Shown here in pieces: positions 3,262 through 53,600 of a stretch of DNA of 64,000 nucleotides. Within the stretch, counting starts at the first letter, position 1. Every line of letters starts with the position of its first letter. The stretch is from Rhizaria sp. SCN 62-66 (taxonomy: Eukaryota): NCBI GenBank assembly GCA_001724265.1, contig MEDY01000255.1, forward strand, positions 1-64,000, read 5' to 3'. Under the pieces are notes generated by a model, which was given only the letters and a program-made list of their open reading frames with translations, had not been told where the DNA came from and made no database searches. A program made the translations under genes and the position numbers.

Positions 3262-4601
3262 AGCGGCCATAACTCAGCTCGTGTTTTGTATCCACACTTG
3301 TCGCAGTAACAAAAACCTGCACATATATCGCAAGTAAATCTGCACAATCCAAGTCAACGCATGATATTCAGCTTTGAGCCTATGACTTCTGAAGTGCATG
3401 TACTCTGCTCCTCTGCCTTGAGAGTAAACCACAAGCCGCGCATGCACTCAAATGGCGTTGTGCGCTGAACACAACATGCCTATGGCGTCAACATGGCTAC
3501 AAAGTATTGCTCTCTCATAGTATGTTCCGCGCTATCGCTGTGTTTAACGCAATCAGCGTATGCTGTCACCCACAGATCACAGTGATATGACAAAATAGCA
3601 AAACCAGCCGACGTAACTGAACTGTATTCTTGGTGTGACTCTGAACGGGTTTGAAATCAATACTAAATCGATTTTCTCAACTCCAGCCGTCACCTCAACA
3701 GCAGCGTCATTACCAGCCCCGCCAGTTGCAATAGCCGCAGTCGTTGTCTGCGCGCAGAAACGGCGGCAGCGGCGGGCCTGCCGACGTGGCGTCGCCTCGC
3801 CAGGCTGTGGCGACGGCGGCACGCGTGTCTGTGGCTTGTGTGGGAGCAACTGCCGCTTTTGCTGGAAACCTTGGGGCTGGGCGACTCGCCGTTGCTGCTA
3901 CTGCTACTGTAAGTGGCACACGTTGACTGTAAGTCGTGCTGTTGCTGCTGTTGCTGCTGCTGGTGCGACTGCCGTTGACCCGAACCTTATTTGCAGGCGC
4001 TGTGACAGCATTATTAACTGCAACTGCAGTGACAGCAGCCGCAGTAGCCTCAACACTCCTGCCAGCGCTGCGTAGAACGCGTCGAGCTCCGCGGGCACGT
4101 GAGGCGAAGAACGTCAAGTAGCCAAACCGACAGCGGCAAGGCGTGGTTGCCGGCGAGTACATGGCGCGGCAGGCGCACATGCGGCCGACGATCGCCTTCA
4201 AGATGAGGCCGCAGTAGGGGAGGGGTGGGAACATCATGGGGGCCATCCGGGAGAAAAGGCTCTCGATCGGGGTCACAAGCGTGACGCTTGTCGCCAGCGA
4301 CAAATGTCGTTGTTCGTCTCCTTTGGCTTTGGAGGGCGGCCTACACTCTGCTCGAAACCATCTGCCTGTTTTCTGCTCGTAGAAACTCATTGATTTGTGA
4401 TTGGAAAATTCCTTGAATTCTTGTATTTCGATGTTAGGAACACAAGTTAACAACGTGATATATTGGCCCTAGAATGGCCGCAAGAACATAACTGCACTGC
4501 CGCAGCAAGCGAAGAGCATTGTGACACATCTTAGCATACTAAGAGCCAGGTAACCATTATGAATACAGAATGAGTATAATGAGTTCTCTTAATGGTATAG
4601 C

Positions 4602-5482
4602 TCAATACTTGGTGATGCTACAGCAGCATACTCGCACCATCATAAAAAGCTCTAGCACAAATGGAATCAGCCTACACACAATTTGACAGTAAAGGAACAT
4701 ATGAACATCAAGCAAAAAATATTATAAGAATTCATTGTTAGTATATCGTAAATATGCGCCGTGTAGTCTTAAATTCGTTCGCTTTCTGATGTTAAAGCGA
4801 TATCAACTTGATAAGCATTCACAAAACGAAAGAGGTGTGTTTGGTTTCTAACGTACGAGCAAAAGGCCCAAATGATCCAGAAAGTTGAGTAATGCCACTT
4901 CTCCATCAAAAACCACGCAATGAGAATTGCGGCGATGTAGTGCGCGCAAGTATCTGTGTTGTTGTAGAGCAAGGTCAAAGGGTAAACGTGTCAGCGAAAA
5001 TGGCATGAGGAAAGAAGTGGAGGATAGAATAGAGAGATAAGCACTATAGAGTGTATATATTGAATATAATGCAAACAAGTCTCATTAACGTCATATATCC
5101 TCTTGTTGTTTGGAAGAAAGTGATGGCTAATCAGTCTACTGTCCTAACCAGTGCTTGCTTTCGTGAGAAGCAGAACCAAGACGACATAATATCGCATATT
5201 TTCGATGAAGTACGTACCATAGACGTTGACAATCGGACTAAACATCGAGAACCCGGCAAACAGCCCAAGAATCTCGGCCGCCTGGAAGAGGATGGTGAGC
5301 CAGACGGCCGCTTCGAGCGAGCTGTAGACGGTGTCGTACTGGCTCGAGGTGTGGTTGTAGGGAATCGACGCGATGACGTTGTCCGACATCTGGTACAGCA
5401 CCATGATGGCGACGGCAAGATGCGCAAGTGTGGCGATAAAGCGCGCGGGAATGACCGTGCTGAGGTAGTTCTGGGAGCCCAT
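4602..5482 (-). CDS. TMEM107: Transmembrane protein 107 (ciliary transition zone), 3 exons: 5482-5218, 4953-4857, 4671-4602
   Basis: Spliced product MGSQNYLSTVIPARFIATLAHL...EILGLFAGFSMFS...AHYIAAILIAWFLMEKWHYSTFWIIWAFCSLIPFVLELF matches the TMEM107 pattern. GTACGT donors, phases are consistent, TGA stop. Confidence 0.88.
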
Positions 5483-6087
5483 GGAGGGCAATCTTGAAAG
5501 CGGGCCGCGGGTGGGCGGGTTGTGGTTGCGGTGCTCAGGTTGCGGTTGCGGGAGCGGAGTGGTGGAAGAGCGCTGGAGAGACACAGACAAAGATACAGAT
5601 AATATTATAAAAGGAAATTCAGTATAAGAAAGGCGTTTATATTTTGGTGAGACTGCATTGTCATAGACGGAAGATGGCGCAAGTTATGAACAACAAAAGT
5701 TGGGCTGATTCAAACCTGACGGCGCGAAGGGCAGCAGCTGCTGAGGTCCAACGGGAGGGTCGGAACTGCGGAGACGAAAACAGCTTCCAGAGCGTTCAAA
5801 CGACCGTCAGAACGAATCTTGCAGAGTCCCTTGGACTAGCTTTGTGTGCTAGATTTCTGATCTAAATGAATTCAGTTTGAAAATGCGCGCAAGGGGCTCT
5901 TCACTCACTGGAACCCGAAAGCCATGCCTCTTTACATCACTATTGGCCCACGTATCCCGCATTCCTTGCATGCCCCACAAACCGAGTGTTTCTCCCTCAT
6001 TTTATCTGATATGACCAATCATCCCCTCATATATATTTTGCTCCTTTTTATCACTCTTGATGTTGCGTATTTATCAGTAAATCCCCG

Positions 6088-6432
6088 ATGGCTGAGGAGA
6101 ACTCTTTCCGCAAGATGATCACCCGCTCCCGTGAGTTCTGCGAGACGGCCTACAACCACACCAACAACACAATTGACGCTCTCCGCGACCCCGCCCGCCA
6201 GTTCAATGACTCCGTGACCGTTTTCACGCGCCCCGCGTTCTCGTGGTTCCACGAGCAGCGCCACACGCGGCCCTGGATGCTCGTCGGCGCCACCGCCACG
6301 GCCACGGCCATTTGCTCCTTCCCCTTCGGCCCCAGCGCGGCAGCCCGCAACACGATCCTGGCTACCATTCTGACCACGTGCGTCGTCAACCCCGAGTATG
6401 TCGTCAAGGTTGTGCGTGACAAGGAGCACTAA
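6088..6432 (+). CDS. 114 aa small protein with two C-terminal hydrophobic segments; function unknown (weak resemblance to MICOS MIC26/27-type layout)
   Basis: Strong C/G third-position bias like the neighbouring real genes, ATG after a pyrimidine-rich leader, TAA stop. The family guess is weak. Confidence 0.7.
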   Translation: MAEENSFRKMITRSREFCETAYNHTNNTIDALRDPARQFNDSVTVFTRPAFSWFHEQRHTRPWMLVGATATATAICSFPFGPSAAARNTILATILTTCVVNPEYVVKVVRDKEH

Positions 6433-7274
6433 GTGAGCCGCCAAACGAGCGCAACTATTGCGTTGCGCGACACCGAAGGCGGAAGCTGCTCTGAACTAGC
6501 TTCACGAAAACAAAGCTCTGACCGGCTTAATGTGCTCTGATTGGTCTCAAACTGTATAACCATATGTTTGTGATGAATACGTTTGTGTACGTTGAGTCCA
6601 ACGATTAAACTGTTCGAACACCTGTATATTCGAATTGTTTACCTCGTACGATCGACGCTAGAGTGACGAAAGCATCGTGCTCTTGACGACGTGAACACGA
6701 CAAAGCGAAGCTAATAAGACAATTGCTGCTGTCATTATTATAAAATCAAATCAACAAATATCATTTATTTAGAAGAAAATGCAAATCATGCAATCATCGA
6801 CTCGTTAACTCCACGCTTCTGCTCTGCTATGGTGTTGACGCCTCCGAGCTGCGTAAGCGATTACGACAGAATACCAGGAATATGGATGATAGAGCTCAAT
6901 GAGTGATGGGATGCAGCGTAAAAACAATTAATAAACAACCTCCTATTAATGTTCCCCTCGTCCGTCTTCAAAAGGCAAACACGAATCACATCATCGCCGG
7001 TCACTCACGAAAAACGTCGTCACAGGTCACAATACGCTTTAACAAAGTACAAGCAAACAAATAAGACTTGACGATAAGGAGTATCTAAACAAGCATTGTG
7101 TATTGGCGGAAACTATCGCTGACAAAAAAGCAGATTAAGCAATCTAAAAGTGTGAAGAGAAACGGCAATTGCGAGAGAGTGCGTGAGTGCAAAGCTTCAT
7201 AGAAACGTTAAGCGTGATGCTACAGTAAAAGCACAACACTTGAAATACGTGTTATAGTGGTTATAATGAAAATA

Positions 7275-7345
7275 TCAGAGATCTTGGTGGAAAAATGTGT
7301 CGTCAGCGCCGAAGCTCTTGAGTAGCAATGATTCGTAGTCATCAT
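7275..7345 (-). ncRNA. SNORD24: Box C/D snoRNA, U24/snR24 homologue, copy A
   Basis: Minus strand reads ATGATGA...TTGCTACT...CCACCAAGATCT-CTGA. Both guides complement the conserved LSU rRNA segment AGAUCUUGGUGGUAGUAGCAA, as in U24. Confidence 0.88.
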
Positions 7346-7589
7346 TTGTATAACCGATGCGCGTGCCTAAAGGAAGAAGCAGCAGCAGTGAAAGATGACA
7401 TACCTTAAGAAGGGGGGGCACTTGCTTATCAAAGCAAGCGCTGTCAGTTCTCGCGAAAGCGTCACGTTGAATCCGCGCGAAACCGCTAAGACGGAAATGA
7501 ATGAAGTTGAAGAAGCAAAGATGAGACGAAGGTTTACAAAAGATTGTAGACTCACAAGGGGACTGAAAGGGTTGTTTGTTTTACTAAAG

Positions 7590-7660
7590 TCAGAGATCTT
7601 GGTGGAAAAATGTGTCGTCAGCGCCGAAGCTCTTGAGTAGCAATGATTCGTAGTCATCAT
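7590..7660 (-). ncRNA. SNORD24: Box C/D snoRNA, U24/snR24 homologue, copy B
   Basis: Identical to 7275-7345 from box C to box D, with unrelated flanks. Confidence 0.88.
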
Positions 7661-8022
7661 CCGTAAAACGAGAAGAGTGGGTAAAGGAGAAGCAAATTGA
7701 GAACACGGACGTACATGTAACTTTGCAGGCGACTGCAAAACTTGGCACAAGTGACAAAAGTTCACTAAGTCAACATCCACAACCTAAAGAAGACAGAACG
7801 TGGACATGGGAAGGAGGATGCATTAGTTACCATGTAGAAAGTCGTAGTACTGGTTAAGGGCCGACAAAATAACGCGAAATCGCAACGTTATACTTTGCTA
7901 TACCACGAGGTATACCGAGAGTAAAATGAATAGATTATTTAAATTTGATAAATAGAAGTTCAGAAAATATTGCCAAAAATTTGCTTGATTTCACGATACC
8001 CCATGCGCCGGGATGCTTCGAC

Positions 8023-8086
8023 TCAGAACGAGACGCGCGCCAACGCACGGAGTAGCATCAAACTAGCCATAAAATTTGTTCATCAC
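8023..8086 (-). ncRNA. Box C/D snoRNA candidate, possible SSU rRNA guide
   Basis: GTGATGA at 8086-8080 and CTGA at 8026-8023. GTCTCGTT next to box D complements the conserved SSU motif AACGAGAC (8 nt only). Donor at 8142. Confidence 0.6.
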
Positions 8087-8363
8087 AACAACTCACGCGT
8101 CATTTAGACTCGTTGAGTGGATGCCATAAGACATAGACGTACCAAATGTGTTGCTGACACGGACATTGCTGGCAAGCGAAACGCAAGCGAGACAAAGCGC
8201 GTGCGTAACGGTATTGACACTTGACTACACCGAGCACAAGCAGGCCGAGCGGGGGGGCGCGACCGAGAGGGCTAGAGGACGAGACAAGAAACGAGAGAGC
8301 AACCAGGTATATGAGTGAACAATATCATTGTTGCGTTGTGATGAGAGAATTGAGGGAGAATAT

Positions 8364-8495
8364 CCACTCAGACAAATGCCTATAAATTGCCATCACGGTT
8401 GAGTGACGCCTCCTGCTTGTCGTGGCCCTCAGAACGAGGGACTCACATCGCACAGGGATTGTCGTAAGACGTGTGTAATAATTTCTTCAGTGTGG
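8364..8495 (-). ncRNA. SNORD15: Box C/D snoRNA, U15-like
   Basis: The 3' end AGGCATTTGT-CTGA is the U15 signature and complements LSU CAAAUGCCU. Variant box C TGAAGA, CCAC/GTGG terminal stem, donor at 8571. Confidence 0.78.
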
Positions 8496-8787
8496 GATGT
8501 GATGTGATGCGATAGCGGGGGATGCAGGCACAAGAGTGCGGTGATACGGCAGTGCTGGAGAAGAAACATACCTTGATGAGTCATGTGTCAAAAGTAAACC
8601 AACAGTCAGCAGTTGCCAAACGACTGAGCTCTGAAGCTAATTGCACAGACTAAATAGCAGAAACACGAAGATCAAGGACTCGATGTGAGGGAATGGACTC
8701 AGAGAGAGAAACAAAGTTAACTAACACGGTTGTTTACAAACAATTTCTACTCAAATTGCGAGTGCTTCGCAAAAGGAGCAAAAAGAG

Positions 8788-8861
8788 TCAGTTTAGTATT
8801 AATGTTTCGTTCTCAGCAATGATAATTACAGTACAGGTCCGTGAAAACAATTAATCATCAT
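8788..8861 (-). ncRNA. Box C/D snoRNA candidate, target not assigned
   Basis: ATGATGA at 8861-8855 and CTGA at 8791-8788, 74 nt span, 60 nt downstream of the donor at 8921. Confidence 0.6.
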
Positions 8862-9200
8862 GTTTGTTTGTAGTGGCAAAGGGCAAGGCAGACAGTCTTG
8901 AAACAAAGCCCAAAAACATACCTCACATGAGACTCGCTTAGAGTTGGGGGGGAAACTGTGTCGCGGGAGTAACGTCTTAAAAACCAAGACTGTCACATCA
9001 AAGAGACATAAAACGTCACCAAAACGAGTGAGAACGATGCCATATAGAAGTAATCTAATCATACGGAAGAGCTCTCATACGGAAGAGATAATACGTAAAC
9101 AAGTACAATCTCTCGTGTGTGTTGTAAGGAATTGATTGGTGTCCTTAGCGACAATGCGAAATCGACATTGTGGAGTCGTTAATCACAACAAAAACCGTTA

Positions 9201-9250
9201 TCAGCGGCCGACTACCACTCCGACCGCCCGTCATTGTCAGTTATCTTCAT
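9201..9250 (-). ncRNA. Box C/D snoRNA, U43/snR70-like (3' end uncertain)
   Basis: Variant box C ATGAAGA. Guide GACGGGCGGT complements the universally conserved SSU ACCGCCCGUC. CTGA at 9204-9201, donor at 9328. Confidence 0.7.
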
Positions 9251-9486
9251 TGGACGAGACTAAAACAAGACTGAAACAACTACAAAGAGGAAACTGGAGC
9301 AGAGGTAAAAAAGAAGCTTTAGACATACCATTACCGTTTCGCAACACCAAAAGTATTGCTGTTGTCACACCAGTCGTGAAACACGCGTCAAGCCATAGGG
9401 CTACAAACATAAATGTGTAAAGAAGGAAACGGTGAGGTCTTCGTAGTACGAGAGAGGCTTGCGGGTTGCAGTAAAGATTGGTTTTT

Positions 9487-9574
9487 GAGTTGAAGTCAGT
9501 CAAAAAAAGGTAAGTATTGGTTTTATCCTCACATTTGATGCAGAAGCTGGACATGGTGATCATCATATCAACTC
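9487..9574 (-). ncRNA. Box C/D snoRNA with 7 bp terminal stem, target not assigned
   Basis: GAGTTGA-t-ATGATGA ... CTGA-ct-TCAACTC: canonical boxes closed by a perfect terminal stem. Donor at 9623. Confidence 0.8.
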
Positions 9575-9788
9575 GGGTATTGGGACAGCGAACTAGGGCT
9601 TTAGTCCTGGAGCTGAGACATACCTTGAGCGAGGTCAAACTGGGGAGTGCAACAGCGGCGTCCGCTTCAGTGCATACTAACAAGACGACTGCGAGTATAA
9701 GAGATAAAATACAATCGTGTGAGTCGTGGTCGTCAAGTTTAGATCGTCGACTGAGAACGATAAAGTAAATTGTTGTAGAAAAGTATAA

Positions 9789-9880
9789 TCAGACTTGCTC
9801 CAATGCCTGGCAAGACACAATTGAGCTGGTTTCCTGTCTCTCGTCATAGTCGATAAGATGGGGAAAGAAAGCGTCATCAT
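9789..9880 (-). ncRNA. Box C/D snoRNA, snR190/SNORD12-like candidate, copy A
   Basis: ATGATGA...CTGA, 92 nt. TTCTTTCCCC and AGCTCAA complement LSU GGGGAAAGAA...UUGAGCU. The family name is tentative. Confidence 0.72.
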
Positions 9881-10166
9881 TTGTTGGGAATCAATAACAG
9901 AAATAATAGAAAACGAAAACGAAAACTGGAAGTATCAGTAAGTAGAAACGCGGTTAAGGCTAAGTTTGCGATGCTTGCTTCAGAAGCATGACATACCTGA
10001 TGCAGAAACCTTGAAAGTGCAGCACTGCGCAGACCACCAACAATCGTCTATAAACAAGATAAAGGAACAAGATCAAGGAACAAAGTCGAGAGCTACCGAT
10101 GTGAGTGATGGCGTTCGAGAGTTGCGAAGTTAGAGCTAAACTAAGTTAAGGGTGATTGTTTTGTAA

Positions 10167-10258
10167 TCAGACTTGCTCCAATGCCTGGCAAGACACAATT
10201 GAGCTGGTTTCCTGTTTCTCGTCATAGTCGATAAGATGGGGAAAGAAAGCGTCATCAT
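10167..10258 (-). ncRNA. Box C/D snoRNA, snR190/SNORD12-like candidate, copy B
   Basis: Near-identical to 9789-9880 (one substitution seen). Donor at 10310. Confidence 0.72.
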
Positions 10259-11182
10259 TTGTTTAATCGTAAAAATGTTGTTTGAAAAGCAAATGAGGAA
10301 GCGAACGTACCAGAGCTTGCAGCGTCGGGGTTCAGAAACATCCTCTGGTGTCTCACGATTGCGCCAATGTAAAGCGGCATCGCTTGGGATTAAAGTGCAG
10401 GCGTGGCTTTATTCCATCGATTAAGTTAAACCGATGAACAAAGCCGTCAGGTGCGGTCCTAAGAGCGAAAGCTCAGAAGGGTGGCATTCAGGCCGAGTGC
10501 TTAGTAACAGTCTAGAAATGGAGCAAAGGCGACACAAAGCAAAACGGGGAGATGTGAGCTTAGTATGAATAGGTACTTGAGAACATGGAATAGCCGTGAA
10601 AAGAGCCAAACTTAAGTTTCAGTGAAACTAAAGGCGGTTTGAGACGCGACAAGTGTGGCGCCCGAATTGGCGCCGAACGCCGTGCGATGCCCGCGTTTTC
10701 GCTGCGTCGATTTGAGCGCAAAAATGAAACATGCAAGCAACGCGGAAATTGTACAAATAGAGTAAAGCATCTCAAGTCGCTATTGAAACGTACCATGGCC
10801 CAATCGCCCCGCAGTGCCGACGGAAATGTGTGGTTTTCCGTAGCGCTCGAGTCATGCCGTGACCCGCGGGCTGGGCCTGGGAGCCGTTCGGTTCAAACCG
10901 TCTAAGCGCCCAGAGCCCTTAGCTCACAGTCACCAGCTCTGTTCCAACAGCTCTCGCCAGACGGGTCAGTCAGTCGGCTCACCACAGCAGAGAGTGGGCG
11001 AAGAGACACTCACTTAGCCTGAACTTTGCATGTGTGATATGGCGTGAAGTTTCCGTTAACAGTTTTTTGGTTGATATATATATAGCTAGATGTCTTGAAG
11101 TGTGCTATGCGTTGTTTTATATACCTCACATGTGTATCCCTGGCTCTATGCCCCCCTTTTACCGCCACGCTGTTGCTCGCAG

Positions 11183-12034
11183 ATGTCTGAGGCACGTAAG
11201 CCGTCTCTGCTGTCGACCTGGACCCTTCCTAAGGCCAGTAAGGCCCTTTTTTGCACGCAGTGCGGTGCCATCATGAACTTGCCCGACTCGTTCAACGATA
11301 TCAAGTGCCCCGACTGCCCCTACTCCTTCAACGGTACGCTCCTCTCGACAACCTGCCCCTCCTCCACTAGAGCTCTGCTTCACTCTTACAAAACAAGCTC
11401 TATTGCCGCACAACAGTGCATTATCAGTATTGCATCTTAGTATCACGTGAAATGCGATGTTAAATATCTGTGCATCTGTTTCTGTCGTGACTTGGCCTTA
11501 TCTCACCTTACTCAACTCCTCCCCCTTTTCCCTGCTCCATCTCATCGGAATGCAACCCTACTTTCGCTGTTTCATTGCTGTCCAATGTTTCCGCTTCCGC
11601 TGCTTAGCCGACACTATGGATGTCGGCGACCAGGTGCAGACGAAGATGATGGAGAGTCTGGAGACCGTCCAGAGCAAGGCCCTTGACCCTACCATGCGCC
11701 GCGCAGTCGTACGTTCCCTCGCCTCTCACGATCCTCCCAACATTCTTCACTTAATGCACTCTAGAACCCCTCAATCGTAATGCCTTTTCACAATACTTTA
11801 TCCAAACCTGTAAACCTGTATCATATAACTTTCTCTAACTTTTTCCTGCTATATCTTTTACTGTGTATCTTTTTTGTTGCGTTATGTGTCATGCCTCAGG
11901 TTGCCGAGCCCTGCCCTAAGTGCGAGTACCACGAGTTGCGCTTCTACACGATGCAGATGCGTTCCGTCGATGAAGGGCAGACCGTCTTCTACGAGTGCGA
12001 AAAGTGCAACCACACGTACTCTACTAACACGTAA
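11183..12034 (+). CDS. RPA12: RNA polymerase I subunit RPA12, 3 exons: 11183-11333, 11608-11708, 11900-12034
   Basis: N-terminal zinc ribbon FCTQCGAIM...CPDC and TFIIS-like C-terminal ribbon CPKC...QMRSVDEGQTVFYECEKC. Splice phases are consistent, TAA stop. Confidence 0.92.
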
Positions 12035-12564
12035 GCGCGACAACAGTGCGCGTTGTCGTGGCCCGCGAGAGTGTGCGCTTGACAGGGGGGGGGGAGTTGT
12101 CTCAGGTATTTTATTACATAGTCCATACATCAAATCTTTGCCTTACGGGATTGTTTGATTTATAAATCAGTATTTGTACTTTATTGGAATGGGAAAACAA
12201 AAAACTACTCGCGCATATCATCGAGTATTGCGTTACAAAGCGCCATCTCAGCCGTCACCCCGCTCAGTGTGACTTGAGAGCGGAGGTGGCGGTTTGTGTC
12301 GACAAACGGCGGCGACTGTGGGGAGGCGAGCGGTGCGAGCGTCCAAACGAGACACACACGCACGCGCACAAAAGGGGGGGACGCCGGGGCGGGCGGGGGT
12401 TAATAGAGCTCGCAGACTGCGGCGGCAAGAGTGGAGGAGGTAAAAAGTGACTGCAGGATCGGGTCACGTGGTTTCGCCCTTACCCGCGCGCTCGCCGCTG
12501 CAAACGAGGGTTAAGTTGCATCAAAGCGGCACGGCACTGTGCTGAGAGTGTGCGGGAAGCGCAC

Positions 12565-13313
12565 TTACTCCTGCTTGGCGGCGATGCGAGCCTTCTCGGC
12601 AGCCTCGGCGACAGCGACAAACTTGGCGTACTCGGCACGCTGGGCAGCGACCTGTGGTGAAAACAAAACAACGCGGGAATATGCAACGATAATGTGAGCC
12701 AAGTGCAAATGTAACAAACACGAAACGTATATATGTAACGGGTACATGTTCTGGTCTTGTTAGAGCGTCAGAGCATGACGGTAATTGAGCGCAAAGTAAG
12801 TTGCAGTGTGGTAAGGGATTGGACGGACCTGAGTGTTGTCGTTGACCTTGTAGGCGATGCCGGCAGCCAGGCCGAGCAGGGAGCCGATGGCGACGTGGCG
12901 GATACCACGGGAGAAGAACTGAGAGGCGGGAGAAGGCGGGAGCGACGAAGTGGGGGTGCGAGGGGCGCAGGGAAGCGAGGGAAAAGGGACGGGAGAGAAG
13001 GTAGAGGTGTGTTAGGTCGGCTAGGCAAGGCGTGGCGTGGGGGGAAACTTTGGAGGGACATTTGGCGGCATAAATGCGTGAAATGCGGGGTAAGACGGTG
13101 ATGATGAGAGATAAAAAGTCGTGGGGAAAAATCTCGTGTGAATGAAAGACGTACGGCCTTGGTGTCGAGAGTGCCATCGTTGAGGTGAATGCCGCCGAAG
13201 AGCTTGTCGGAGCCCTTGGAGCGGGCAATGTCGAGGCACTGCTCAAAGTTGCGGATGCGGAAGTTGGCATCGCGAGTGAAGGTCTGCTGCACAAAGCGAG
13301 AAGCGGTAAACAT
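12565..13313 (-). CDS. Probable cytochrome c oxidase subunit of the COX6C/Cox9/plant COX5c type, 3 exons: 13313-13155, 12918-12829, 12651-12565
   Basis: Spliced 111 aa product with a presequence-like N-terminus and one TM segment IRHVAIGSLLGLAAGIAYKV...RAEYAKF resembling that family. Strong codon bias, TAA stop. The gene model is firmer than the product name. Confidence 0.65.
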
Positions 13314-41600: not shown

Positions 41601-44600
41601 GTTCTCTAGCACCTGTTGGCTCAGGCAACTGAGTACTACGGTCTTGCTCTGTTGTCCCCTCTCCAAGAAGAAGAAGAAGAAGAAGAAGAAGAGGAGGAGG
41701 GCGCTGGCGATGAGCGCGCCGACAAAAGCAACACAAGCGCTGAGGATGGTGCGACTAAGAGTGCTGCTGCCGCGACCGACATCAGTGCCGACAATGACAA
41801 CAAAGATGCTGCTGCAGATGGTAATGACGGTGCATGGGAGTAGCCGTCCCGCAACACGCGCAGTCGCACCCGCACTCGCGCGCTCAGTGTGCCTGCCACT
41901 GCCACTGCCACTGCCACTGCCACTGCCACTGCCACTGCCACTGCCACTGCTACCGTGACTGCGAACTCTAGTTCAGGCGGCAGCAAACAGAGCAACGGCG
42001 CAAGTAGCAACCGCGGGCGTGGCCGGGGCCGTGGCCGTGCCCGTGGCCGTGCCCGTGGCTGCGGGCGCGGTCGAGGCGGCAGTAACACTGCTAACGACGA
42101 TGACGCCAACGCTGACGCCCACACCGAGACCAAGGCAATCACTGGCGATATGGTCGATTCGCCCCCCACATCGCCCCCGCCCCCGCCCCCTCCTAGCGCG
42201 CGCGACATCCTTGTTGGCGCGCTGCAGAAACTGGAGAGGACGCCGCTTTTCACTGCCAACGAACGCGCCGCACTGGCGCGGCAGCATCCTCCGCTTTTTA
42301 GCCCCTCTGCGACGACGAAGGCGAGTGGATACACGTGCCAGCTCACGGTCGCACTTACACTGGCTAAGGGTGCTGTCACGTCGCTCACTTTCACAAACAG
42401 CTCCTCGAATACGAACAGTACTGCGAGCGGTGACAGTACCAGGTTCATTAAGCTCGAGTCCGTGCCTCTTGCTGTGCTGCAACAAGTTGTTGACGCTGCC
42501 CACGGTCACTTCGCAGCACTTATGTCTCGCGTAAGCGCCACCTCATCAATTGACAGCGGCAATGCTTTCCGCGTTGACTATAGTCTCAGCGGCTCGTGCA
42601 AGTACGATGTCGAGCTGCTTTTGCCTGCTAAGGTGTTTTTGCATGCGCACAAAGACACGTCACTCATCACGACTGAGACAATGACGACACCTGCAGCTGC
42701 ACTTTCAGCGGGCAACAGCGACGATTTTGAGACTCGCCCGAGCACATCTGTGTCTGTTGCTGCTGCTGTTGCTGCATCGGTGACTGCAGTCGAGACAGCA
42801 AGCGCGAATGAGTCTCAGTCATCATCGTCGTCGTCGTCGTCGTCGTCAGCGTCGGCATCGTCAGCTGCGGATACGTGTACTGCTAAGCGTGGCACGTACA
42901 CTTCACGGTCCGTCGTGCTGACGCGGCCACACGCACTCTTCGCGGTTCTCTCCGCACTTACTCACACAGTACTCACTTCTCCGCTAAGTACCCCGCTGCC
43001 AAGTCTAAGCACCCATCTGCCAGCGTCCATCAACTCAGTTGCGGCAGCGACCGCGGTTACCCACACTGCGGCGGCCGCGACCGTGGCCTCTGCGATGCTC
43101 ATCCCGCCTCTTGTCCCCAGTCCGTGGACTATGCTCACTCACTCACGTCTAAGTATCCCCTTAGACTCCGGTCACGCGAGCAAGCGTAGCGCGCAGCAGT
43201 CCGGGCTCGACAGCGCAGCGCGCGCGATTTTCTCGGTCCTGCGCCGCGCCCCCGGCCAGTCTCTGCGCGCTCCCAGCCACTCCGTGGTGACGCACATCCT
43301 GACGGTGCTGCCGCCGCTGCCGACGACGAGCGGCGCGGGCGCCAGCATCACTGGGCTCAGCGCCCTGAGCGCCAGCCTCAGCGGCGGCGTCAGCACCGCG
43401 GCCGTGGACAAGCTCTCGGCGGGGTCGCTGCTGCGCGCGCTCCTGCTGCCGCCGCTGGCGCTGCCGCTGACGTTCGCCGAGAAGGGGGCGAGCGTCGGCG
43501 TGGGGAGCCACCCGGCGGCGCTGCAGTCGCGCTGGCAGTGTAAGTACCTCGCGTCTAAGGGCCAGGGCGGCGCCTCACCCGGGACTACGCAGAAGACGCC
43601 GAGGTACCTGCAGTCTAAGGGTGTGGTGCGCCCCTGGGTACTTACATCTGCGCCTAGTCGTCTGCTCGCGGTCGCCGCGACTGTGCCCGCTGCTGCTGCA
43701 GCAGTGGCAGCGACAGCGTCTGCTGTGGCAGCTGTGGTGACTGTGGTTCTTGCCGCTGCAAATGACGCGGCGAAGGAGGCCGCCGAGGCAAGTGCGGCCG
43801 ACGCTACCCCTTCTAAGGCGGCTGATGCTGACCACGATGCTGATGGACATGCTGTTGATGCTGCTGAGGTTGCAAGCGCGAGCAATGACAAGGTTACTGC
43901 TTGCGTTGGTGTTGCGGCAGCTGTTGCTGCTGTAACAACTGCGGTCGCTTCCGTCACCGCTGCGACTGCGCTGTTGCGCTCTTTTCTCAACGAAAACGCG
44001 CCTACTAAGTATTGCATTGCATCATTTAAGGGTTTGACTTTGAGCGAGGGTGCGTTGTTTCTGCACTCTACTACTCCTTACATCGAAGGCGTTCTCACAT
44101 CTGTTGCCGACATGATTGCCGATATCACAAGCACGGAAGCTTATCTCAGTACAATCAGTGCTGATCTAAGTACTCTTGGCTTAGGACGCGCGCTTCAGAG
44201 TGTCAAGCAACAACTTTTGGTCTTGATCTCGATCACAACATCGATCGCTGCCCCACTAATTGCAACATACTTACCCAGTCAGACTGTCGCTGCTGCGGAC
44301 TTAAGCACTTCTTTGACTGACTGCGACACACGTGAGAATAGTGACATCCACGGAGCTGTGATATCACATATGCGTCGGTTTGGCGTTGCTTCAGCAATGC
44401 GGCGCTTGCACGCCTTTGTTCTGAGCGCTGCTGGTGATGACAACGGAAGTGACTCGATTTCTACCACTGTTGAGAGTGAACTATCTCGGAGTACAAAGGC
44501 AGCTGTGACTGCTGCTGCGAGTACACTCAGTATCTCCCTTGCGAGCAACAGCGTCGATTCGAGTGCAAGTGCCTGTGCCCAAATGGACGACACATGTGGC

Positions 44601-47600
44601 GAGAGCAGCATCGTTGCACGCCTTACTGCTGCTGCGCGGACACTAAGCCAAGCCGCATCAACTGCAAGTCAAGCATTGCCAGCCTCAACTGCATCACCTC
44701 TCTTAATGACTGACTGCGAGCAACAACAGCCTGTTCCGAGTGGCAATGAGCAGTCGAAGCTCAGTCAGTCCAGTGCGAGCTGGTGGCTCGGGACAATGCC
44801 GTCGGGCACTGACCCGCTCACGTCTTCTTCCAGTCTTGGTGCGCGCGATCGCAGTGCGAAGGATTCGACCAGTGCAACTCCTAACACGAACTGTGGAGTC
44901 GTGAGTGACTCTGAGCTCGTTGCGCTCAGCGAGATCCTCGACATTTTCTCTCTCACTGAGCCGAAGTCCCATGTGGATTCAAACTGTGCGGACATTCCCG
45001 GTAGCGAGGTGCCATTGCTTCCTTTAACTGCGTTTGCGCCGACCCTACACGAAGTGACGGAGTCTGGCGTGCTTGCAGCCCTCAGCTCATACCTCAATGT
45101 AAGTACCCCCTTGGACACGGAGGACCACGCACCCGTGCCTTTGTCGCTCGCAGCAGCGCGGGCCCGTGCGCTGTTAGCCGTTGCATGCGGCTTGCCTTTA
45201 GTGCCGAGCCCTTACATCACCACTGGTACTACTTGCGCTGATAACAAGAAGACTGGCAGCGAAGCTGAGACGGAGACCGGTGCAGCTTGGCTTTCCTTCG
45301 CTTCTCAAATGAAGGCCGCCACAGATCCCCTCTTCACCACTCAAAGTCAGGCCGCGCCATTTGCTTGCTCTGCGCAATTAGACGCAAGCAGTGTGCGTGC
45401 GCAGCGTTTACACGGTCTTAGCACGCTGTTCAAGTCTGCGCGCGCGGCCGCTGACTCGGCCGCGCTTCGTCTGGCGCCATTGCTGTCGCCCACGTACACG
45501 CTCGCACTCACATTGGGCTCAACGACGGCATCTCCTCTGACGACCATCACGTCGGTGGCAAACGCCCTCAACGACAGCAGTAGCGGCTCAAGCGCAAGCT
45601 GTAGCTCTGGTGCTGGTGCTGGGAATAGCATCGTCACCGTGAGTACTGGCGCTGGTGCGTTTGCGCTCTCACAGACACGCGCACAGTCCCTTACATGGGC
45701 AAAGCGGTACGTACGCCACATCCGCATGACTCTCCATCACACGAGTACAGGCTCTGACACGACTAGCCATGCAAGCTCCGCTGTCTCAGAGCCGTGCGGC
45801 TTAGCTTTCTCGACTGGCGGCTTAACATTTGTGCAGCTTGTGAGCGCTTTGTGGGACAAGACTCAAGTGACAGTCGCGCCATCACACCGTCTTCTTGCAA
45901 ACTACTTTAGCGCGAACGCTAACAACAACGCGAACAGCGCAAGTAGCGCCAGCCGCTATAGCTCAGGCTACAGCCTTTACTCGAGGCAATCGTACGGCTC
46001 TGGCGGCTATAGCGCGCAGTTACAGCCGCAGTGCCAATGGTCGCTCTCTGTCCTCCCCACAGCTGCCATTGGCGACAAGGCTGCTGACGTTCTTCGCAAG
46101 AGTCATACCGAGATCTCCAAAGTCTATCTCTACGATGTCAGTGCTTCCAACAGCAAGGCCACTGTGAGTACCTGCGGTGACCTGAGTGATCCTGCTGCTC
46201 TTGCCCCTTACACTGTCTCATGCCCAGCTTTTCCTTGTCACGCCACACCCTTAGACCTTGCTCTCATTGACAACGTGACTAAGGATGCTCACTGTGAACT
46301 TGATGCTGTCAATGGAAACGAACACTCAGAAGAGGGTAGTGCGATGCTCACGGTCACTGCTGCAGTTGCACGGATGCTAAGCCGCCCCTGGACTGTATAT
46401 TCATTCAAGCCGAATATGACAATGCTCACTATCGATGGCAACGACATCACAAGCACTGTTGGTAGTAGCCCCAGCTCGAGTAGTAACTACTCAGGCTACA
46501 TGAGCTCGTACGGTAGCCCGTACGGCTCTGCATACGGTCACACCCCCGCCCCGTCCGCCCTGTTCACTCTCGTCCCCACTGCCGTCGGCAGCGGCGCTAT
46601 CATCACTCTCAACAGCGGCGCGGGTGCCGGCACCCAGAGTCGTCGCCACTGCTCGATTCACGGCTGCCAGAGTAGCAGCAGTAGTGATAACGCCGCTGCG
46701 AGCGCGAGCGCTGCTGCATCTGAGAAGGCGGCTGCGACTAGCAAGCAGGTCAAGGCGTACTATAGCAATATCACGACGTCTGTTGCCCCGTACGATGTCT
46801 ACGTTGAGGGAGACTGGGCTGCGAGTCGCGCCGCGTCCAGAGACGGATGTTTGGCCGCTCTCGGTTCTTGTAAGGAAGTCACGGCGCAGCACCCCTGTAC
46901 TCTGTGCAGCGCCTCTGGCAGCACCACAAACAGCGCGGAGACGACCCCGGCTACAAGCGCCATTGCTAAGGCCAACGGCGGCAGCAGCGATGGTGAACAT
47001 GCGCGCAGTGTTGTGAAGATCGTCATCTCACAAGAGCAAGAGGAGGACGCGGTGATTCACAATGTGCTGTTGCCGCTGCTCCAGCTCGTGTCGAGGCTCA
47101 GTCGCGTGTTGACGAAGTGGTGGGAGTGGTACTTACCTGACGTCGTCGCGACGGTGGATCTAAGTGCCTCTAGCTCTTGCTCGAGCTCGAGCTCCAGTGC
47201 GAGTGCCGTCACTGCCGCAGCTGGCGGCAAACTCGTGAGCATTGCTCTGTTGCCGACAACCGTCACGCTGACGGCGCCGTCAGCTGTCAGGGGCGGTGGC
47301 GACGAGTTGACGACAAACAACAAGACCAAGGTTCCTGTTCCCGTGCCCGTTACTGCATACTTGCACTACATGCAAGAGACCGCCCCGCTGTCCAGCGTAG
47401 CCAGTGGAGGCATCTCCGCTTCGAGGCCCTGCTTTACGTTTGTTGCAGGCCTTGTTGGCCGCCCACGCCAGCTTCAGCCGCTGCCGTGCCCGTCTCCAGT
47501 CTTTGCGAGTATTGCGCACGCCCACAGCGGCTCAACCTCGAGCTCTAGCTCTGCTACTGCTGCTGGTACTGTCCACACTGTGAACGCAAGCGTTGATGTT

Positions 47601-50600
47601 GATGTCGGTGTTGTGTGCAGTGAAAGCGACTGTGAGCTGCCTCTGTTAGGCGCAATCGCTGCTTTATGGACGCTAGACCCAGTGGCAATCGCGTTCAAGC
47701 ACTTGCCTTCCTGGCTCGGCACCCTCACGCGTCTCAGCTCTTCGACTGCGAGTCAGCGCTCAGACGGCGGTGTAAGTGCCCCCTTGGCCGTCCCCGCGCT
47801 GCTGCCGCTGCTGCCGCTGCACGTGCGCTCCCGCCTCGCGCTGGCTTACCACACGGGCCCCGCTGCGGCGCGCGCCGTGGTTGCGGCAAACTCGGCGCTG
47901 TTCCGCAGTCAAGCCGGGTTCCTGCACCGCTACGTCAGCAGCTCGGTCAACCTGCGGGGTGCCCTGCCGAGGGAAGCGGTGCTGAGCGGTGGCGCGAGCG
48001 CGACGGCGAGGGCAAGCGTGAACGTCATGACCTCGACGGTGCTCAACGTGGATCTCCTCACTGCCTGCGCGTGCGCGAGTCTAAGTACCTTTCTCGCGCC
48101 GCCGCTTACTCAGCTCCATATCTTTCACAGCAGCCATACCTACGCCACCAGCACGAGCTCCATGACCACGGTGAGCTGCGCAACCACGCTTTCGTCCCCA
48201 TCACTCCCGCTGCATTTGCCGCCGGTATCGCTGCTCTTCGCCCCCACGCCGCCGCCGCCGACGCAGCAACAGCAACAGCAGGAGGGCGCCACGGGGAGCG
48301 CCGGGGCCGCGGGCGGCCGCGCACCGCTGGGCAGCGCCAAGGTGACTGTGAGCAGGCCGGCGCCGTTTGCGGACATGACCAAGTGGGCATGGACGCAGGC
48401 ACTTGCAGCTCTAAGGGGCGCGAGCACAAGCGCCACTGTTAGTAGCAATTCTAGCGCAAACGCGTTCACTCGCAAAGATGCTCTCGACATTGCAAGCACT
48501 GCTCTCGCGTACATGCACAACAACAACGCGAGCGCGAACTCCAACATTGGTTTGTCTGCCGGTGATGCTGGCTATGACGGTGTGTTGAGTCCGTGTGAGT
48601 TTGGCAATCTTGTGTCGCTACAGTACACGACAGTTCCTCTTCAAACACATGCTGGGACGAACCCCAATGACTTTCCATGGATTTCTCAGCTTCTGCACGC
48701 AATGGCATCGCCGCAGAATCTCAGCAGCCGTCTAAGTACCTGCCACAGCGAGAATGTAAGCACCCGTCACCCGCTGCTGTGGGCCCCACGGCCGCTGCAG
48801 GTCGTGCTCAAGGGCGTGTTTGCGGGCGAGGCCGGCTTTGGCGAAGGGCCCAACCAAGAGGTGCGCGCGCTCGTCGACTCCACGCTCGCCGCCGCCGGGG
48901 CCGGGGTGGGACTGTGGCGGCAGGACTGGGGCAGCGGGGCCCGCAACGGCAGCTGCCACAGCCAGGGCAACAGCGACTGCGAGAGCGACGACGACGGTGG
49001 CGGCGGTGTCGACCCTTATAGCGGCCGTGGTGATGATGGCGACATCGTCAATGGCGGTGCAGCTGTAGCTATGACTGATGGTGACCGTGGCACGACCGCA
49101 GACAAGGTTGCTGACTCCAACTCTGGCGCGAGCTCGAGCTCTGTGCTTGTGACGGACGCTGCGAGTAAGCAAGAACGCAAAGCGCAGGCTTTGGTTGCAA
49201 AGTCAGAGGTTTTGCTTACGTTTCCTTTACCGAACTCGCTGAGGAGCCCAACTTCAGACGCGTATGCACAAGATGCACGCGCATCCCTGTGTGTGCCTAT
49301 TAGCTCCAGTGCGCTGCTCATCTCTGCCATTGTCGCGATCGACACTGCGTATAGCCCAAACACACCCAGTTCTGGAGGGGCATCAGGCAGCCTCGCTTCT
49401 AGTTCTGGGTACGATAGCGCCTACCGTAATGACAACAACAGTGGCAGCTGCTACAGTAACAGCTATGTTTCAACGGCAAGCCTTAGCAGCAGCCTTAGCA
49501 GTAGCGCTACTAAGCACAGCTACAGTAGCTTACACAAAGACAACATTCGCCACAAACGCGAGAGCCTTCTGTTCCCGTCTAAGCGGGCTTTGCGACTGCA
49601 GAAGCAACAAGCGATGCTGCAAGCACAGCAACAGGCAGCCGCGCGCGCGGATTTGATGAAGGACGGCGATGACGCAAATGAAACTGCCGCAGATAGCAGT
49701 GATATTGATGATGCCAGCGCGGGCTACATCTTTGGTGGGATTGATGATATGTTTGGCTTCCGACCCAAGCGTAAGCTCGAGTCATCATCATCAGCAGCTA
49801 CTGCTGCTGGCGTTGGCGCCAACGATGCCGCTGTGAGCACGACTGATACTGACTCCGACTTCGATCTGGACTTTGATTCGGACTCTGACTCAGACATCCT
49901 CAAGAGCTCTCGTGTTGTCGTTAGCGACGATAACAGTTCGAGCCTCGATGGCGCGAGCAATCCAAGCGCTGATCTCAACCCGCGCCACCGCCGGCGTCGG
50001 CTTGCAGTTGCCGTTTCCAGCACTTACAGTTACCCTCCAGTTCCCGGCCGCAACGCCGGTGACGATGACGACGACGAGGAGGAGGAGACTGAGCAGGAGC
50101 ACCAGCTGCCTGCGGTGATATCGGCGCCAATTACAGCCACAGACCATGTCGCCACCGTGACTGACAAGCAGAGTGACGCGCCGGCCACTGCGGCCTCTGG
50201 CGCGGAGGCTGCGGCTGCTCTTACCGAGGCTGAGGCGAAGGCCAAGGCTGACGCCGAGGCGGAGGCTGAAGCTGAGGCAATCACAAAGGCCGTGATTGCA
50301 TCTGACTGCGCAATATCTGGAGTGACGGACGCGTTGAAGGCATTCTTCCAGTCGGCAGGAACTCCTCAGAGTAGCGCAAACAGTAGTAGCGTGAGCGGCA
50401 GCACGAATGCTACTGCTTGCGCTGGCGCCGGCGCTGATGCCAGCGAGGTCCCTAGCGCGAGCGCTAGTGCGAACAATCTTGATAGTACTGCAAGCTGCGC
50501 AAACTTTAGTGCAAGTGCTAATTTTGCGGACAGTTCTGATGTTAGTGCCCCAGATGTTGGCCCTGGCCTCGCGTTGACGAGCCAGCTAATGCGCATCATG

Positions 50601-53600
50601 ACCACTCTGTTCGCGCACACGGCTGCGTCTGCTTCAAAGGCTAAGCCTCTGACGCTGAACAAGAACGCTTTAACAGCCGCTGCCGCCGCCGCTGTTGCGG
50701 CGACGGCTGCGGCTGAGTCAGGCGCGGCGAACAAGAGTGATGTGGCTTCTATTTTCAACGCGGTCAAAATCTCTCCTGTGTTCACAGTCACTTACTCTAG
50801 CAGCAACGCGAACGCGCGCACCGACACAGCTAACACGCGCTCGGACAGTGCTCGCATGATGACTGTGAGTAGGGTGGCTCATGTGCCTCATGCAACAACA
50901 ACATCGCTTGTGGTCACAAAGAACGCGCTCACCATCACCGCAACATCTGAACATGATCGTCATGGCTCTAGCAGTCAAACCAGTCTCCCCACGATCACGT
51001 TTGTTCCCTACAGGACCCATAAGCTTGCCGCCCGCACTGCACATGACAGCAGCTCTAGTGATGATGGCGGACGCGATAATAACAGCGACACCAGTGATAC
51101 TGATGATGATTGCGGCTCACGCTTGCCGTTGCCTTTACTCTTGCCGCTCACATCCTCACGTGTTCCCCAGAACAACAACAACGACACTGACACGAGTACG
51201 CTGTCAAGCTCAGGTGTCCCTGCATGCGCTGTCATTTGCACGTGCTGCGGTGACGCAACCCCTTTAGTCGAGAATGGAGCGTCCATTCCGATCCGGCTTC
51301 ACTTCAGCGATACCCCGCTAGTCATTCCTGATATTACAGTCACTTCGACGACCCTGGCACGCGCGCGACCTCCAGGCTTATCATTCAGCAACAAAACCAC
51401 AAGTAACACTCTTGACACGAACTCTGGCGCTGTTTCGACACTGACTACGGTCACACCGATTAACACTGCTAGCCGTGTGTTCGCAACGTTCTTCGCGATG
51501 GTGATTGCTCGCGTCGCCAGTGTGCGTGCAGAGACACGGCGGTCACTGAAGATTCTCGCGAACGAAAGTCAATCCGCACGCGATAAGACGAAGGCCGCTG
51601 CAAGGAAGAGCAGGCGCGAAGCTGTTGTTGCATCGGAAGAGACGAGTCACAACGACGACAAGAAGGACGACAAGTCTGAGGCTGGTGAGGCGGTGAACGC
51701 AGACTCTGACTCTGTCGTTGGCACAAAGGCCGCTTCTAAGACGCGGGCTCGGACCCGGACTAGAGTTCGCGCGAGGGCGAACACTCAGATTGCGACCGCA
51801 GCGAACTCGAGGTCGAATGCCGGCGCAACGGCCAAGTCCCGTGCGAAGTCGACGTTGAAGGCTAACGCAGACGCTGCCTTCGAGGCTGATACCGAGTCTG
51901 AGGAGGAGGCTATTGCTGAACAGGACACTGGGGCTTTGAAGGTCAATCTCTTTGCCGACGCAGCGGCGAGCAACACGCCTGATGCCGCTGCTCCTGCGAC
52001 CGACGGGAACAATGATGACAACAGCAGCGATGACAGTGACAGCAACGTTGGAGACGACAGTGACAGCGACAATGACCGTGACAGTGAAACTGGTGAGGAT
52101 TGGTGGGCACAATGCTTCGGCTATCAATTCACTTCCACAGGTCTTGCTGTCGATGTCCAGCTCGCTGCGACCAACCCAATCAAGTCTAGCGACACCACGA
52201 GCGCCACGTTTTGTGAGCAGCCCGCCGCATCCACGCGGTCTAATCCGCGATCTAAGCGGGTTAACTCGCCACCGAAGAGCTCCCAGTCGGCTAAGACTGT
52301 TGCTACGAGCGAAACCGCGGTGTCATCTAAACCCCGCGTCAAGCGCACCAAGCCATCTGATCCTGGCAGCCAAACTCAGAGCAACAAGATCGAGGACTTG
52401 ACTTCGGAGCAACAGCTTGAGAGTCACCGCGCGCGTGTACTGCGTCGTTACGTCAAGATGTTCACTGCTCGTGCCCCCCGGTTGGCGGCAGCAAACACAG
52501 CAACGCAGACCCATGATTGTGTCAAGGAGGCGAACATGACGATTAGCTGTGCTCCCGAGTCAGCGCTTACCGTGGGCAATGTCGCTGAGCGGCTGACTGC
52601 CAAGGCGGCGAAGCTTCACCACTTGCAGTGGGTATCCTGGACTGACGCTGTTGCCGTGGCGATGTACGTCGCTGTGGCAGCGAGCAAGGCAATGGGCGGC
52701 ACAGCGCACCTTCGCTTCGGCCAGAAGCTCCCCTTTGCGGAAATTAGTCTGGCTAACCATGGCGTGCAGGTGCCGGCGAGCGTCACGCTGTATCAACCCG
52801 CGGTCAACAGTAATTCAAGCACGAACGCGAGTGGACTTTCCTATGCTGCCGCCGCCCTTGCATCTGTCTATAACAATAGTCACCCCAGCGGCGGCTCAAG
52901 CTCTGCACCGCGGTTTCCCTCACAAGACCCTCTTGTTTGCCGTTGCATGACGACTGATAAGGACAAGAATAGCTCTCCAAACACTACGAGTGTCGCAGTA
53001 CCTCAACGTGTTCGGACGTTGTTTTATGTTTCTCCGAACTTCAACAGCATGAACACGACGAGCCCAGGCAGTGGTATTGCACCGGTCACGTCAGACTACC
53101 AACAGAGCCAGAAGCAGCAGCGCGAGCTGCTACGGCAACTGCAAAAGTCACATGATGCGGCCCAGCGCCGCGCTGCACGCCTTGAAAGTAAGCCGCTGAG
53201 GCTTGACTTTAGGCCGAGTCTGCAAGCCATCGCTGCTTCTGCACTAACTCCTAACTCCAGCAATACTGACAACAACAATGCACCAGCTGCTACTACTGCT
53301 GCGTCTGGTTTGAATGCGACAGCGAGTGCGACTGCAGGTGCACCTGGCAGTGTTGCAGTTGTCACGGTTGCTTCTTGCGATCAGGTGGAGTTACCTCTGT
53401 ACCCTTCGTGGCGTCTTCCAACTGTACCGAGTGCAACAACATCTAGCACAGACATGTGGGGCGATACCACTATGCAGTCTAAGTACACCCTTGCACAAAT
53501 GCCACTGTGGCTCCGCGACCTGCGCTCTGACTCACGCCCTACACTCGCCAATAGCAACGCCAGCGCTAGTCTCTCGCAGTCAACGCAGGACTCGCAGTCG

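Follow-up and report, generated by a model that had tools for sequence, protein, structure and literature searches.

A probable non-coding host gene carrying one box C/D RNA per intron in Rhizaria sp. SCN 62-66

On the minus strand of a 64,000-nucleotide (nt) stretch of contig MEDY01000255.1 (positions 1 to 64,000; assembly GCA_001724265.1, Rhizaria sp. SCN 62-66), hereafter called the window, an original prediction made from the letters alone placed a non-coding gene in which nine box C/D small nucleolar RNAs (snoRNAs) alternate with nine splice donors of the form GTAYGT. The question raised by this locus is whether these units are carried one per intron by a spliced transcript without a protein product, as in the GAS5 and UHG genes of vertebrates, or whether some of them are exonic, accompany a small coding gene or are chance motifs. 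The central claim of the prediction, i.e., that a protist makes a spliced, non-coding transcript each intron of which carries one C/D snoRNA, was supported by joints in sequencing contigs at six of the nine donors and by the lack of a coding signal in the exons. We therefore consider it very probable that the locus is a non-coding host gene of the GAS5/UHG type in a probable cercozoan (sainouroid-like) protist, with one C/D RNA in each intron. All positions are those of the window, and the host lies on the minus strand.

Layout and splicing of the probable host transcript

Ten GTAYGT sites were counted on the minus strand between positions 7000 and 10900, nine of which are followed by a box C at distances that reproduce exactly those of the original prediction (Table 1). 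The observed number of donor-box C pairs, nine, compares with a mean of 0.031 and a maximum of 2 in 2000 dinucleotide shuffles, and only one of the remaining 45 GTAYGT sites in the window was paired in this way. The proposed alternation of nine units with nine donors holds for these nine pairs, the tenth donor, at 10793, having been overlooked; similarly, nine units are present as claimed, yet they represent seven different RNAs, two of them duplicated. Each spliced or predicted intron carries exactly one box C to box D unit. No second locus was found when the locus DNA was searched against its own genome.

Splicing was assessed from contigs of four sequencing runs compared over positions 6000-12800. 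Run X1 is a polyA run, X2 and X3 represent one sample, and X4 is DNA-like and covers all 30 bins. Contigs of X2 and X3 skipped six of the nine introns at the donors listed in the original prediction, through CT..AC joints (GT..AG on the minus strand), the other three donors being uncovered; none of the six joints was found in X4 or X1. A single 189-nt contig of X3 spans three introns, and the lengths of the aligned pieces sum to those of the contigs without extra letters (23+72+65+29=189 for record 20 of X3 and 23+67+61=151 for record 12 of X2). Since an intron in a coding gene nearby is likewise missing from contigs of these two runs, where a loose end at 12654 resumes at 12832, X2 and X3 are taken to hold complementary DNA (cDNA). 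A fixed TACTAAC branch point was absent before the six acceptors indicated by RNA.

In the proposed mechanism, one minus-strand transcript would be spliced (six introns seen, nine proposed), each of the nine introns holding one box C/D RNA 52-116 nt behind its donor. By analogy with established intronic C/D snoRNAs, the released lariats would be debranched and trimmed by exonucleases to the boxes, giving rise to small nucleolar ribonucleoproteins, a route described in PMC11028025. The trimmed RNAs would then guide 2'-O-methylation of ribosomal RNA (rRNA), and the joined exons would be a by-product without a conserved protein.

The C/D units, their homologues and their predicted targets

Rfam, the check proposed with the original prediction, was searched at gathering cut-off and at low stringency (E<=10). 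At cut-off, SNORD24 at 7271-7350 was the one match in the whole window, while at low stringency seven of the nine units matched C/D families on the correct strand (SNORD24 and snR107/SNORD12 twice each, and snR61, snR56 and SNORD15). Matches to SNORD12, snR107, snR61, snR56 and SNORD15 were all below the gathering cut-off, and the units concerned are named only as "-like". The labels originally given, i.e., U24, U15, U43/snR70 and snR190/SNORD12, agreed with either Rfam or guide pairing, the unit 4 guide being one that we take to be U43/snR70. Boxes C and D were noted at the ends of eight units; in unit 4, box D and hence the 3' end are uncertain, a CTGA at 9204 giving 50 nt and an extension to about 9145 being possible. 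Variant forms of box C occur in unit 4 (ATGAAGA) and unit 6 (CTGAAGA), and consistent terminal stems were not found in minimum free energy folds of the units. The cores of units 8 and 9 are 100% identical, and the flanks of the duplicates (units 1/2 and 8/9) share approximately 50-59% identity.

A pattern search for U24 retrieved 29 metagenome loci. Two of these, L011 and L014, which are identical over 9602 nt and come from a distant organism, present the same order as the window, i.e., SNORD12/snR107, snR61, a U43-type guide, snR56, U15 and U24, and each of these six families sits behind a donor-like site. Upstream, the L011 cluster has an additional SNORD36-like unit; BLAST and Rfam revealed no equivalent of unit 7 in it, its neighbouring genes differ from those of the window, and homology of its dehydrogenase gave no clear lineage placement. 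On alignment with L011, unit 6 was found to keep the D guide and to have diverged in the D' guide. Between the unit 3 guide (9533-9552) and its L011 homologue there are three differences, one of them facing the methylated base, which suggests a changed target in large-subunit (LSU) rRNA. In L011 itself, a possible one-base exon before U24 and a possible zero-base exon before the U43-type unit were noted within 3700-6450, as was a donor at 6232 with a unit of no assigned family behind it. Six further joints, not GT..AG and connecting snoRNA ends, were present in X4; the contigs concerned may derive from diverged relatives that keep the cores and not the spacers, and 8018-8041 (the unit 7 guide) is kept in one of them.

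Predicted guides were compared with the only rDNA unit found in the assembly, on contig C706. Pairing with LSU extended over 11 bp for units 1 and 2 and 12 bp for units 8 and 9, and pairing of the unit 4 guide with small-subunit (SSU) rRNA over 11 bp; by eye, pairing measured 9 bp for unit 6, 8 bp for unit 7 and approximately 10 bp for unit 5, the last spanning an intron of the rDNA. C706 is rich in both A+T and introns, and C143 (3156-3235) carries another, divergent LSU 5' fragment, which may derive from the true rDNA; C706 may therefore be co-binned from another organism, and these pairings are provisional. The C706 rDNA is much lengthened by insertions (SSU 4.4 kb, LSU 6.8 kb). The LSU segment predicted from the guides was absent in a scan of prokaryotic genome contigs. 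Units 1 and 2 could also pair with LSU over a further 12 bp; the L011 homologue lacks this pairing, which was treated as chance.

Table 1. Features of the host locus and its divergent gap, in the order of host transcription.
Feature	Position	Strand	Donor, box C (spacing, nt)	Basis
Divergent neighbour, two-zinc-ribbon RNA polymerase subunit, RPA12-like	11183..12034	+		Pfam Zn_ribbon_TFIIS and a zinc ribbon
Recurrent 12-nt motif, possible promoter element	10925..10936	-		in divergent gap between host and RPA12-like gene; function putative
Host transcription unit, non-coding	7119..10793	-		extent of both ends predicted
Tenth GTAYGT donor, no box C behind; possible snoRNA-free first intron	10788..10793	-		sequence only
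Possible second intron without a snoRNA, donor GTACCT, acceptor at 10459 or 10512	10459..10576	-		sequence only
Exon sequence before intron 1	10311..10414	-		contig of X2 over 10313-10414; joint 10047/10311
Intron 1, 263 nt, spliced	10048..10310	-		joint in X2
Unit 1, SNORD12/snR107-like, predicted snR190-type LSU guide	10167..10258	-	10310, 10258 (52)	Rfam snR107 32.7 bits, SNORD12 27.9 bits; L011 homologue
Exon, 51 nt	9997..10047	-		joints on both sides
Intron 2, 308 nt, spliced	9689..9996	-		joint in X2 and X3
Unit 2, duplicate of unit 1	9789..9880	-	9996, 9880 (116)	99% identical core, unrelated flanks
Exon, 65 nt	9624..9688	-		joints on both sides
Intron 3, 223 nt, spliced	9401..9623	-		joint in X3
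Unit 3, snR61-like, D' guide altered, D' box CTGC	9496..9566	-	9623, 9566 (57)	Rfam snR61 31.1 bits, E 0.071; L011 homologue 44 bits
Exon, 72 nt	9329..9400	-		joints on both sides
Intron 4, 339 nt, spliced	8990..9328	-		joint in X3 only, short side 23 nt
Unit 4, U43/snR70-like predicted guide 9233-9223	9201..9250	-	9328, 9250 (78)	guide pairing; same guide at same rank in L011
Exon, 68 nt if donor 8921 used	8922..8989	-		acceptor from joint, donor predicted
Predicted intron 5	donor 8921, acceptor 8624-8650	-		sequence; RNA cover absent
Unit 5, snR56-like, in predicted intron 5	8788..8861	-	8921, 8861 (60)	Rfam snR56 27 bits, E 0.94; 12-nt guide identical in L011
Predicted intron 6	donor 8571, acceptor 8220-8272	-		sequence; RNA cover absent
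Unit 6, U15-like, in predicted intron 6	8368..8490	-	8571, 8490 (81)	Rfam SNORD15 26.5 bits, E 0.0074; L011 alignment
Intron 7, 359 nt, spliced	7784..8142	-		joint in X2 and X3, 61-nt side
Unit 7, C/D-like, no Rfam family	7960..8086	-	8142, 8086 (56)	boxes; CTGA at 8026, preceded by a candidate SSU guide of 8 bp
Exon, 69 nt	7715..7783	-		joints on both sides
Intron 8, 229 nt, spliced	7486..7714	-		joint in X2 and X3
Unit 8, U24 (SNORD24), two guides	7590..7660	-	7714, 7660 (54)	Rfam 39.2 bits
Exon, 82 nt if donor 7403 used	7404..7485	-		acceptor from joint, donor predicted
Predicted intron 9	donor 7403; last acceptor 7220, 7144, 7119 or 7085	-		sequence; RNA cover absent
Unit 9, second U24 copy, in predicted intron 9	7275..7345	-	7403, 7345 (58)	Rfam 42.6 bits vs 41-bit cut-off

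Coding potential and alternative readings

Several observations weigh against a non-coding host with one snoRNA in each of nine introns. Runs X2 and X3 were automatically classed as "probably DNA", and the RNA support comes from the one sample that they represent, at a depth of 2.3-5.8 with one contig per joint, one of these joints (8989/9329) having 23 nt on one side. RNA cover is lacking over introns 5, 6 and 9. Overlapping contigs connect introns 1 to 4 with one another, and introns 7 and 8 are also connected, but no contig bridges the two groups. The polyA run yielded unspliced pieces only, introns of the neighbouring gene included, and is uninformative on splicing. With respect to the units, the Rfam cut-off was passed by one of nine, and a match was absent for units 4 and 7 even at E<=10; unit 3 fails to match the LSU of C706 at the nucleotide whose methylation its guide would direct, unit 6 has lost its D' guide, and C706, the reference for all pairings, may come from a different organism.

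All three donors without RNA cover match GTATGT in full, are normally spaced and have pyrimidine-rich acceptors, and in L011 donors also precede snR56, U15 and U24. In view of these sites we regard it as improbable that the locus gives rise to two or more shorter transcripts, or to a partly spliced polycistron from which units 5, 6 and 9 would be cut as exonic RNAs by nucleases, despite the precedent of polycistrons with both intronic and exonic snoRNAs in Candida (PMC5033589) and Neurospora (PMC2780460) and despite the lack of RNA over 8202-8966 and everywhere below 7447 in the host. Gaps are expected at such low depth, and that over introns 5, 6 and 9 is no evidence either way.

The exons, which the original prediction described as short and without coding signal, measure 51-72 nt where joints are present on both sides. 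In all 144 splice models, the longest open reading frame (ORF) with an ATG has 73 codons (from ATG 10380, through four exons), a length reached by 26% of 2000 shuffles. The codon score of this frame was -0.008, as compared with 0.16-0.25 in five neighbouring coding exons and -0.20 for the intron null. Two exon pieces were of sufficient length for Pfam and matched no family; tblastx of the exons gave no match to L011, and blastn two short matches only (16 and 24 nt). These negative tests support the absence of a conserved coding frame from the joined exons, and the conserved protein that the original prediction had named as a contrary outcome was not found by Pfam, codon score or tblastx, no search of protein databases having been made with the joined peptide. 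A stop-free frame of 183 codons at 9237-9788 was rejected, as it crosses spliced introns and had sub-threshold Pfam matches only.

The same results bear on a coding host that would make the 73-residue protein and carry further snoRNA introns in a long 3' untranslated region (UTR). Such an arrangement has a parallel in the same genome (C352, described below), and the 73-codon frame does run open through RNA-supported joints, with a G+C content at third codon positions of 0.60, above that of other frames. However, its length is within chance, its codon score is far under those of true coding exons, its comparisons with Pfam and L011 were negative, and the diverged X4 contigs match snoRNA cores only; a small coding host is thus rated as slightly less probable still than the shorter or partly exonic transcripts. 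The mostly sub-cut-off Rfam scores and the degenerate boxes of units 3, 4 and 6 might point to motifs that arose by chance or to a cluster in decay, but both are highly improbable in the face of the shuffle test, the RNA joints, the ordered L011 homologues and the identical duplicate cores in unrelated flanks.

Comparison with known systems and genome context

As originally stated, the inside-out layout is known from GAS5/UHG of animals and from fungi, in print for Neurospora (PMC2780460) and Candida (PMC5033589), so that neither this kind of host nor its mechanism is new. In common with vertebrate UHG/SNHG1 and GAS5 (PMC11028025, PMC2780460), the window host has many introns with one C/D snoRNA each, short exons and short ORFs only; the snoRNA sets differ, and the likeness is one of layout, without a claim of homology. 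The UHG-like clusters I-V of Neurospora crassa (PMC2780460) and the polycistronic hosts of Candida (PMC5033589) are likewise non-coding and spliced, with GTATGT-type donors common to both and to the window host. In Neurospora (PMC2780460), most snoRNAs lie 41-60 nt from the 5' splice site, as compared with 52-60 nt for six of the nine units of the window host. In contrast with the fungal hosts, the window host has two duplicated families and no fixed TACTAAC branch point, and its order, SNORD12-snR61-U43-snR56-U15-U24, is not among the fungal clusters named in the available parts of PMC2780460 and PMC5033589.

Among protists, arrays of 12 and 4 C/D snoRNAs in Oxytricha trifallax were predicted to be intronic in non-coding carriers (PMC3177221), whereas snoRNA clusters of Tetrahymena were described as intergenic (PMC3273799). 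The Oxytricha case resembles the present one in coming from a protist of the stramenopile-alveolate-rhizarian (SAR) group, in the size of the array (approximately 3.5 kb) and in a conserved donor before each snoRNA with no other conservation; it was argued from sequence alone, whereas six joints of the window host are seen in cDNA. The window host further differs from ciliate arrays in lineage (Rhizaria), in donor consensus and in most members (U31, snR60 and snR77 in the ciliate arrays). The suggestion that a protist uses the same strategy as animals was therefore supported, but its novelty was overstated in view of the earlier Oxytricha prediction. No rhizarian case was found in the available parts of PMC3511168, PMC12309372 and PMC3268645, nor any snoRNA study of this kind for Cercozoa or Rhizaria among the papers listed from the open literature, a scope outside which supplements and most subscription journals lie. 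Reviews describe protist snoRNA annotation as thin (PMC11028025, PMC12309372). The locus provides an RNA-supported multi-intron non-coding host in a rhizarian lineage, seven concrete predicted guides for comparison with fast-evolving rRNA, and a data point on whether the expression of snoRNAs from introns, linked to splicing, is an ancestral trait or one that arose more than once.

The other 27 metagenome loci (L010, L012-L013 and L015-L038) contain ordered C/D arrays of snR77, U15, U31, U24, snR60 and snoR1, and U15 lies upstream of U24 in many of them. C4A4 telomeres were present on 16 of the 27, several loci being complete from telomere to telomere, and GTAAG preceded 103 of 138 box C sites, as compared with 21% of random positions. 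These loci are probably nanochromosomes of spirotrich ciliates with non-coding hosts.

The best named homologue of a bromodomain protein encoded in the window was from Guttulinopsis vulgaris (55% identity), followed by Mataza, Plasmodiophora and Reticulomyxa and also a haptophyte. Judged from this one gene, without a tree, the organism is likely a cercozoan, perhaps a sainouroid; Sainouroidea are termed highly divergent in titles cited by PMC10770858.

The donor-box C-box D pattern had 30 matches genome-wide versus 4 for a control, and Rfam support among 16 scanned loci included U18, U31, snR54, U30 and others, so that the same genome carries other C/D RNAs one per intron. On C352 (L064:2800-4360, minus strand), a ribosomal protein S19-like gene has a U18-like RNA in a coding intron and three more snoRNA introns past the stop, in which two duplicated C/D RNAs alternate. 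On C93 (L044:557-1623, minus strand), one 1067-nt coding intron of an eIF3h-like gene contains four identical U31b-like snoRNAs parted by three TTTAG-GTAYG sites; downstream of box D, any other AG is lacking for two of the sites, and the remaining site has one GAG. These sites are probably recursive splice sites, i.e., zero-length exons in a coding gene, and recursive splicing of snoRNA introns has been described in a non-coding cluster of Candida (PMC5033589). An apparently non-coding host with a single intron and one C/D-like unit was noted on C132 (L071:1490-1750).

A broader proposal, which we hold only tentatively and consider rather doubtful as a whole, is that this lineage strictly keeps one snoRNA per spliced unit, each duplicate in its own intron, with short exons in the window host and zero-length exons in the eIF3h-like gene. 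Together with the ciliate layout and the position of U15 upstream of U24 in both groups, non-coding intronic hosts might then be old throughout SAR, perhaps ancestral in eukaryotes, and the altered guides (unit 3 and the D' guide of U24) might track the divergent rRNA of sainouroids.

A terminal oligopyrimidine (TOP) start is a feature of vertebrate host genes, and one had been suggested near 10605. This suggestion was unsupported, since the minus strand holds 15 pyrimidine runs of this sort, the one at 10605 among them and not distinguishable from chance, and donors at 10793 and 10576 lie upstream of it. Candidates for the 5' end are 10605 itself or a site upstream of 10793, the contigs having no resolving power for starts; the two donors and the motif at 10925-10936 indicate that transcription may begin further upstream. 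The genome contains 94 matches to this 12-nt motif, as compared with 10 for its reversed control; many of them lie between divergent genes, the motif is also found upstream of the S19-like host on C352, and 10 of 30 examined sites were inside long ORFs. The motif resembles the core of fission-yeast Homol-D (PMC4138321). A Homol-D-like ribosomal regulon was rejected, as the 74 ORFs that adjoin the 30 examined sites (of 94) included no ribosomal-protein family. The divergent neighbour is presumably RPA12-like, RPB9 and RPC11 also being possible labels.

At the other end of the host, opposed AATAAA sites at 6769 (minus strand) and 6930 (plus strand) raise the possibility that the 3' ends of the host and of a plus-strand gene at 6088-6432 overlap. 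Two genes downstream of the host, a gene of the TMEM107 family was noted at 5213-5482 (minus strand), and elsewhere in the window a 4637-codon open frame at 41844-55757 (plus strand) is of low complexity with, by eye, a HECT-like C-terminus.

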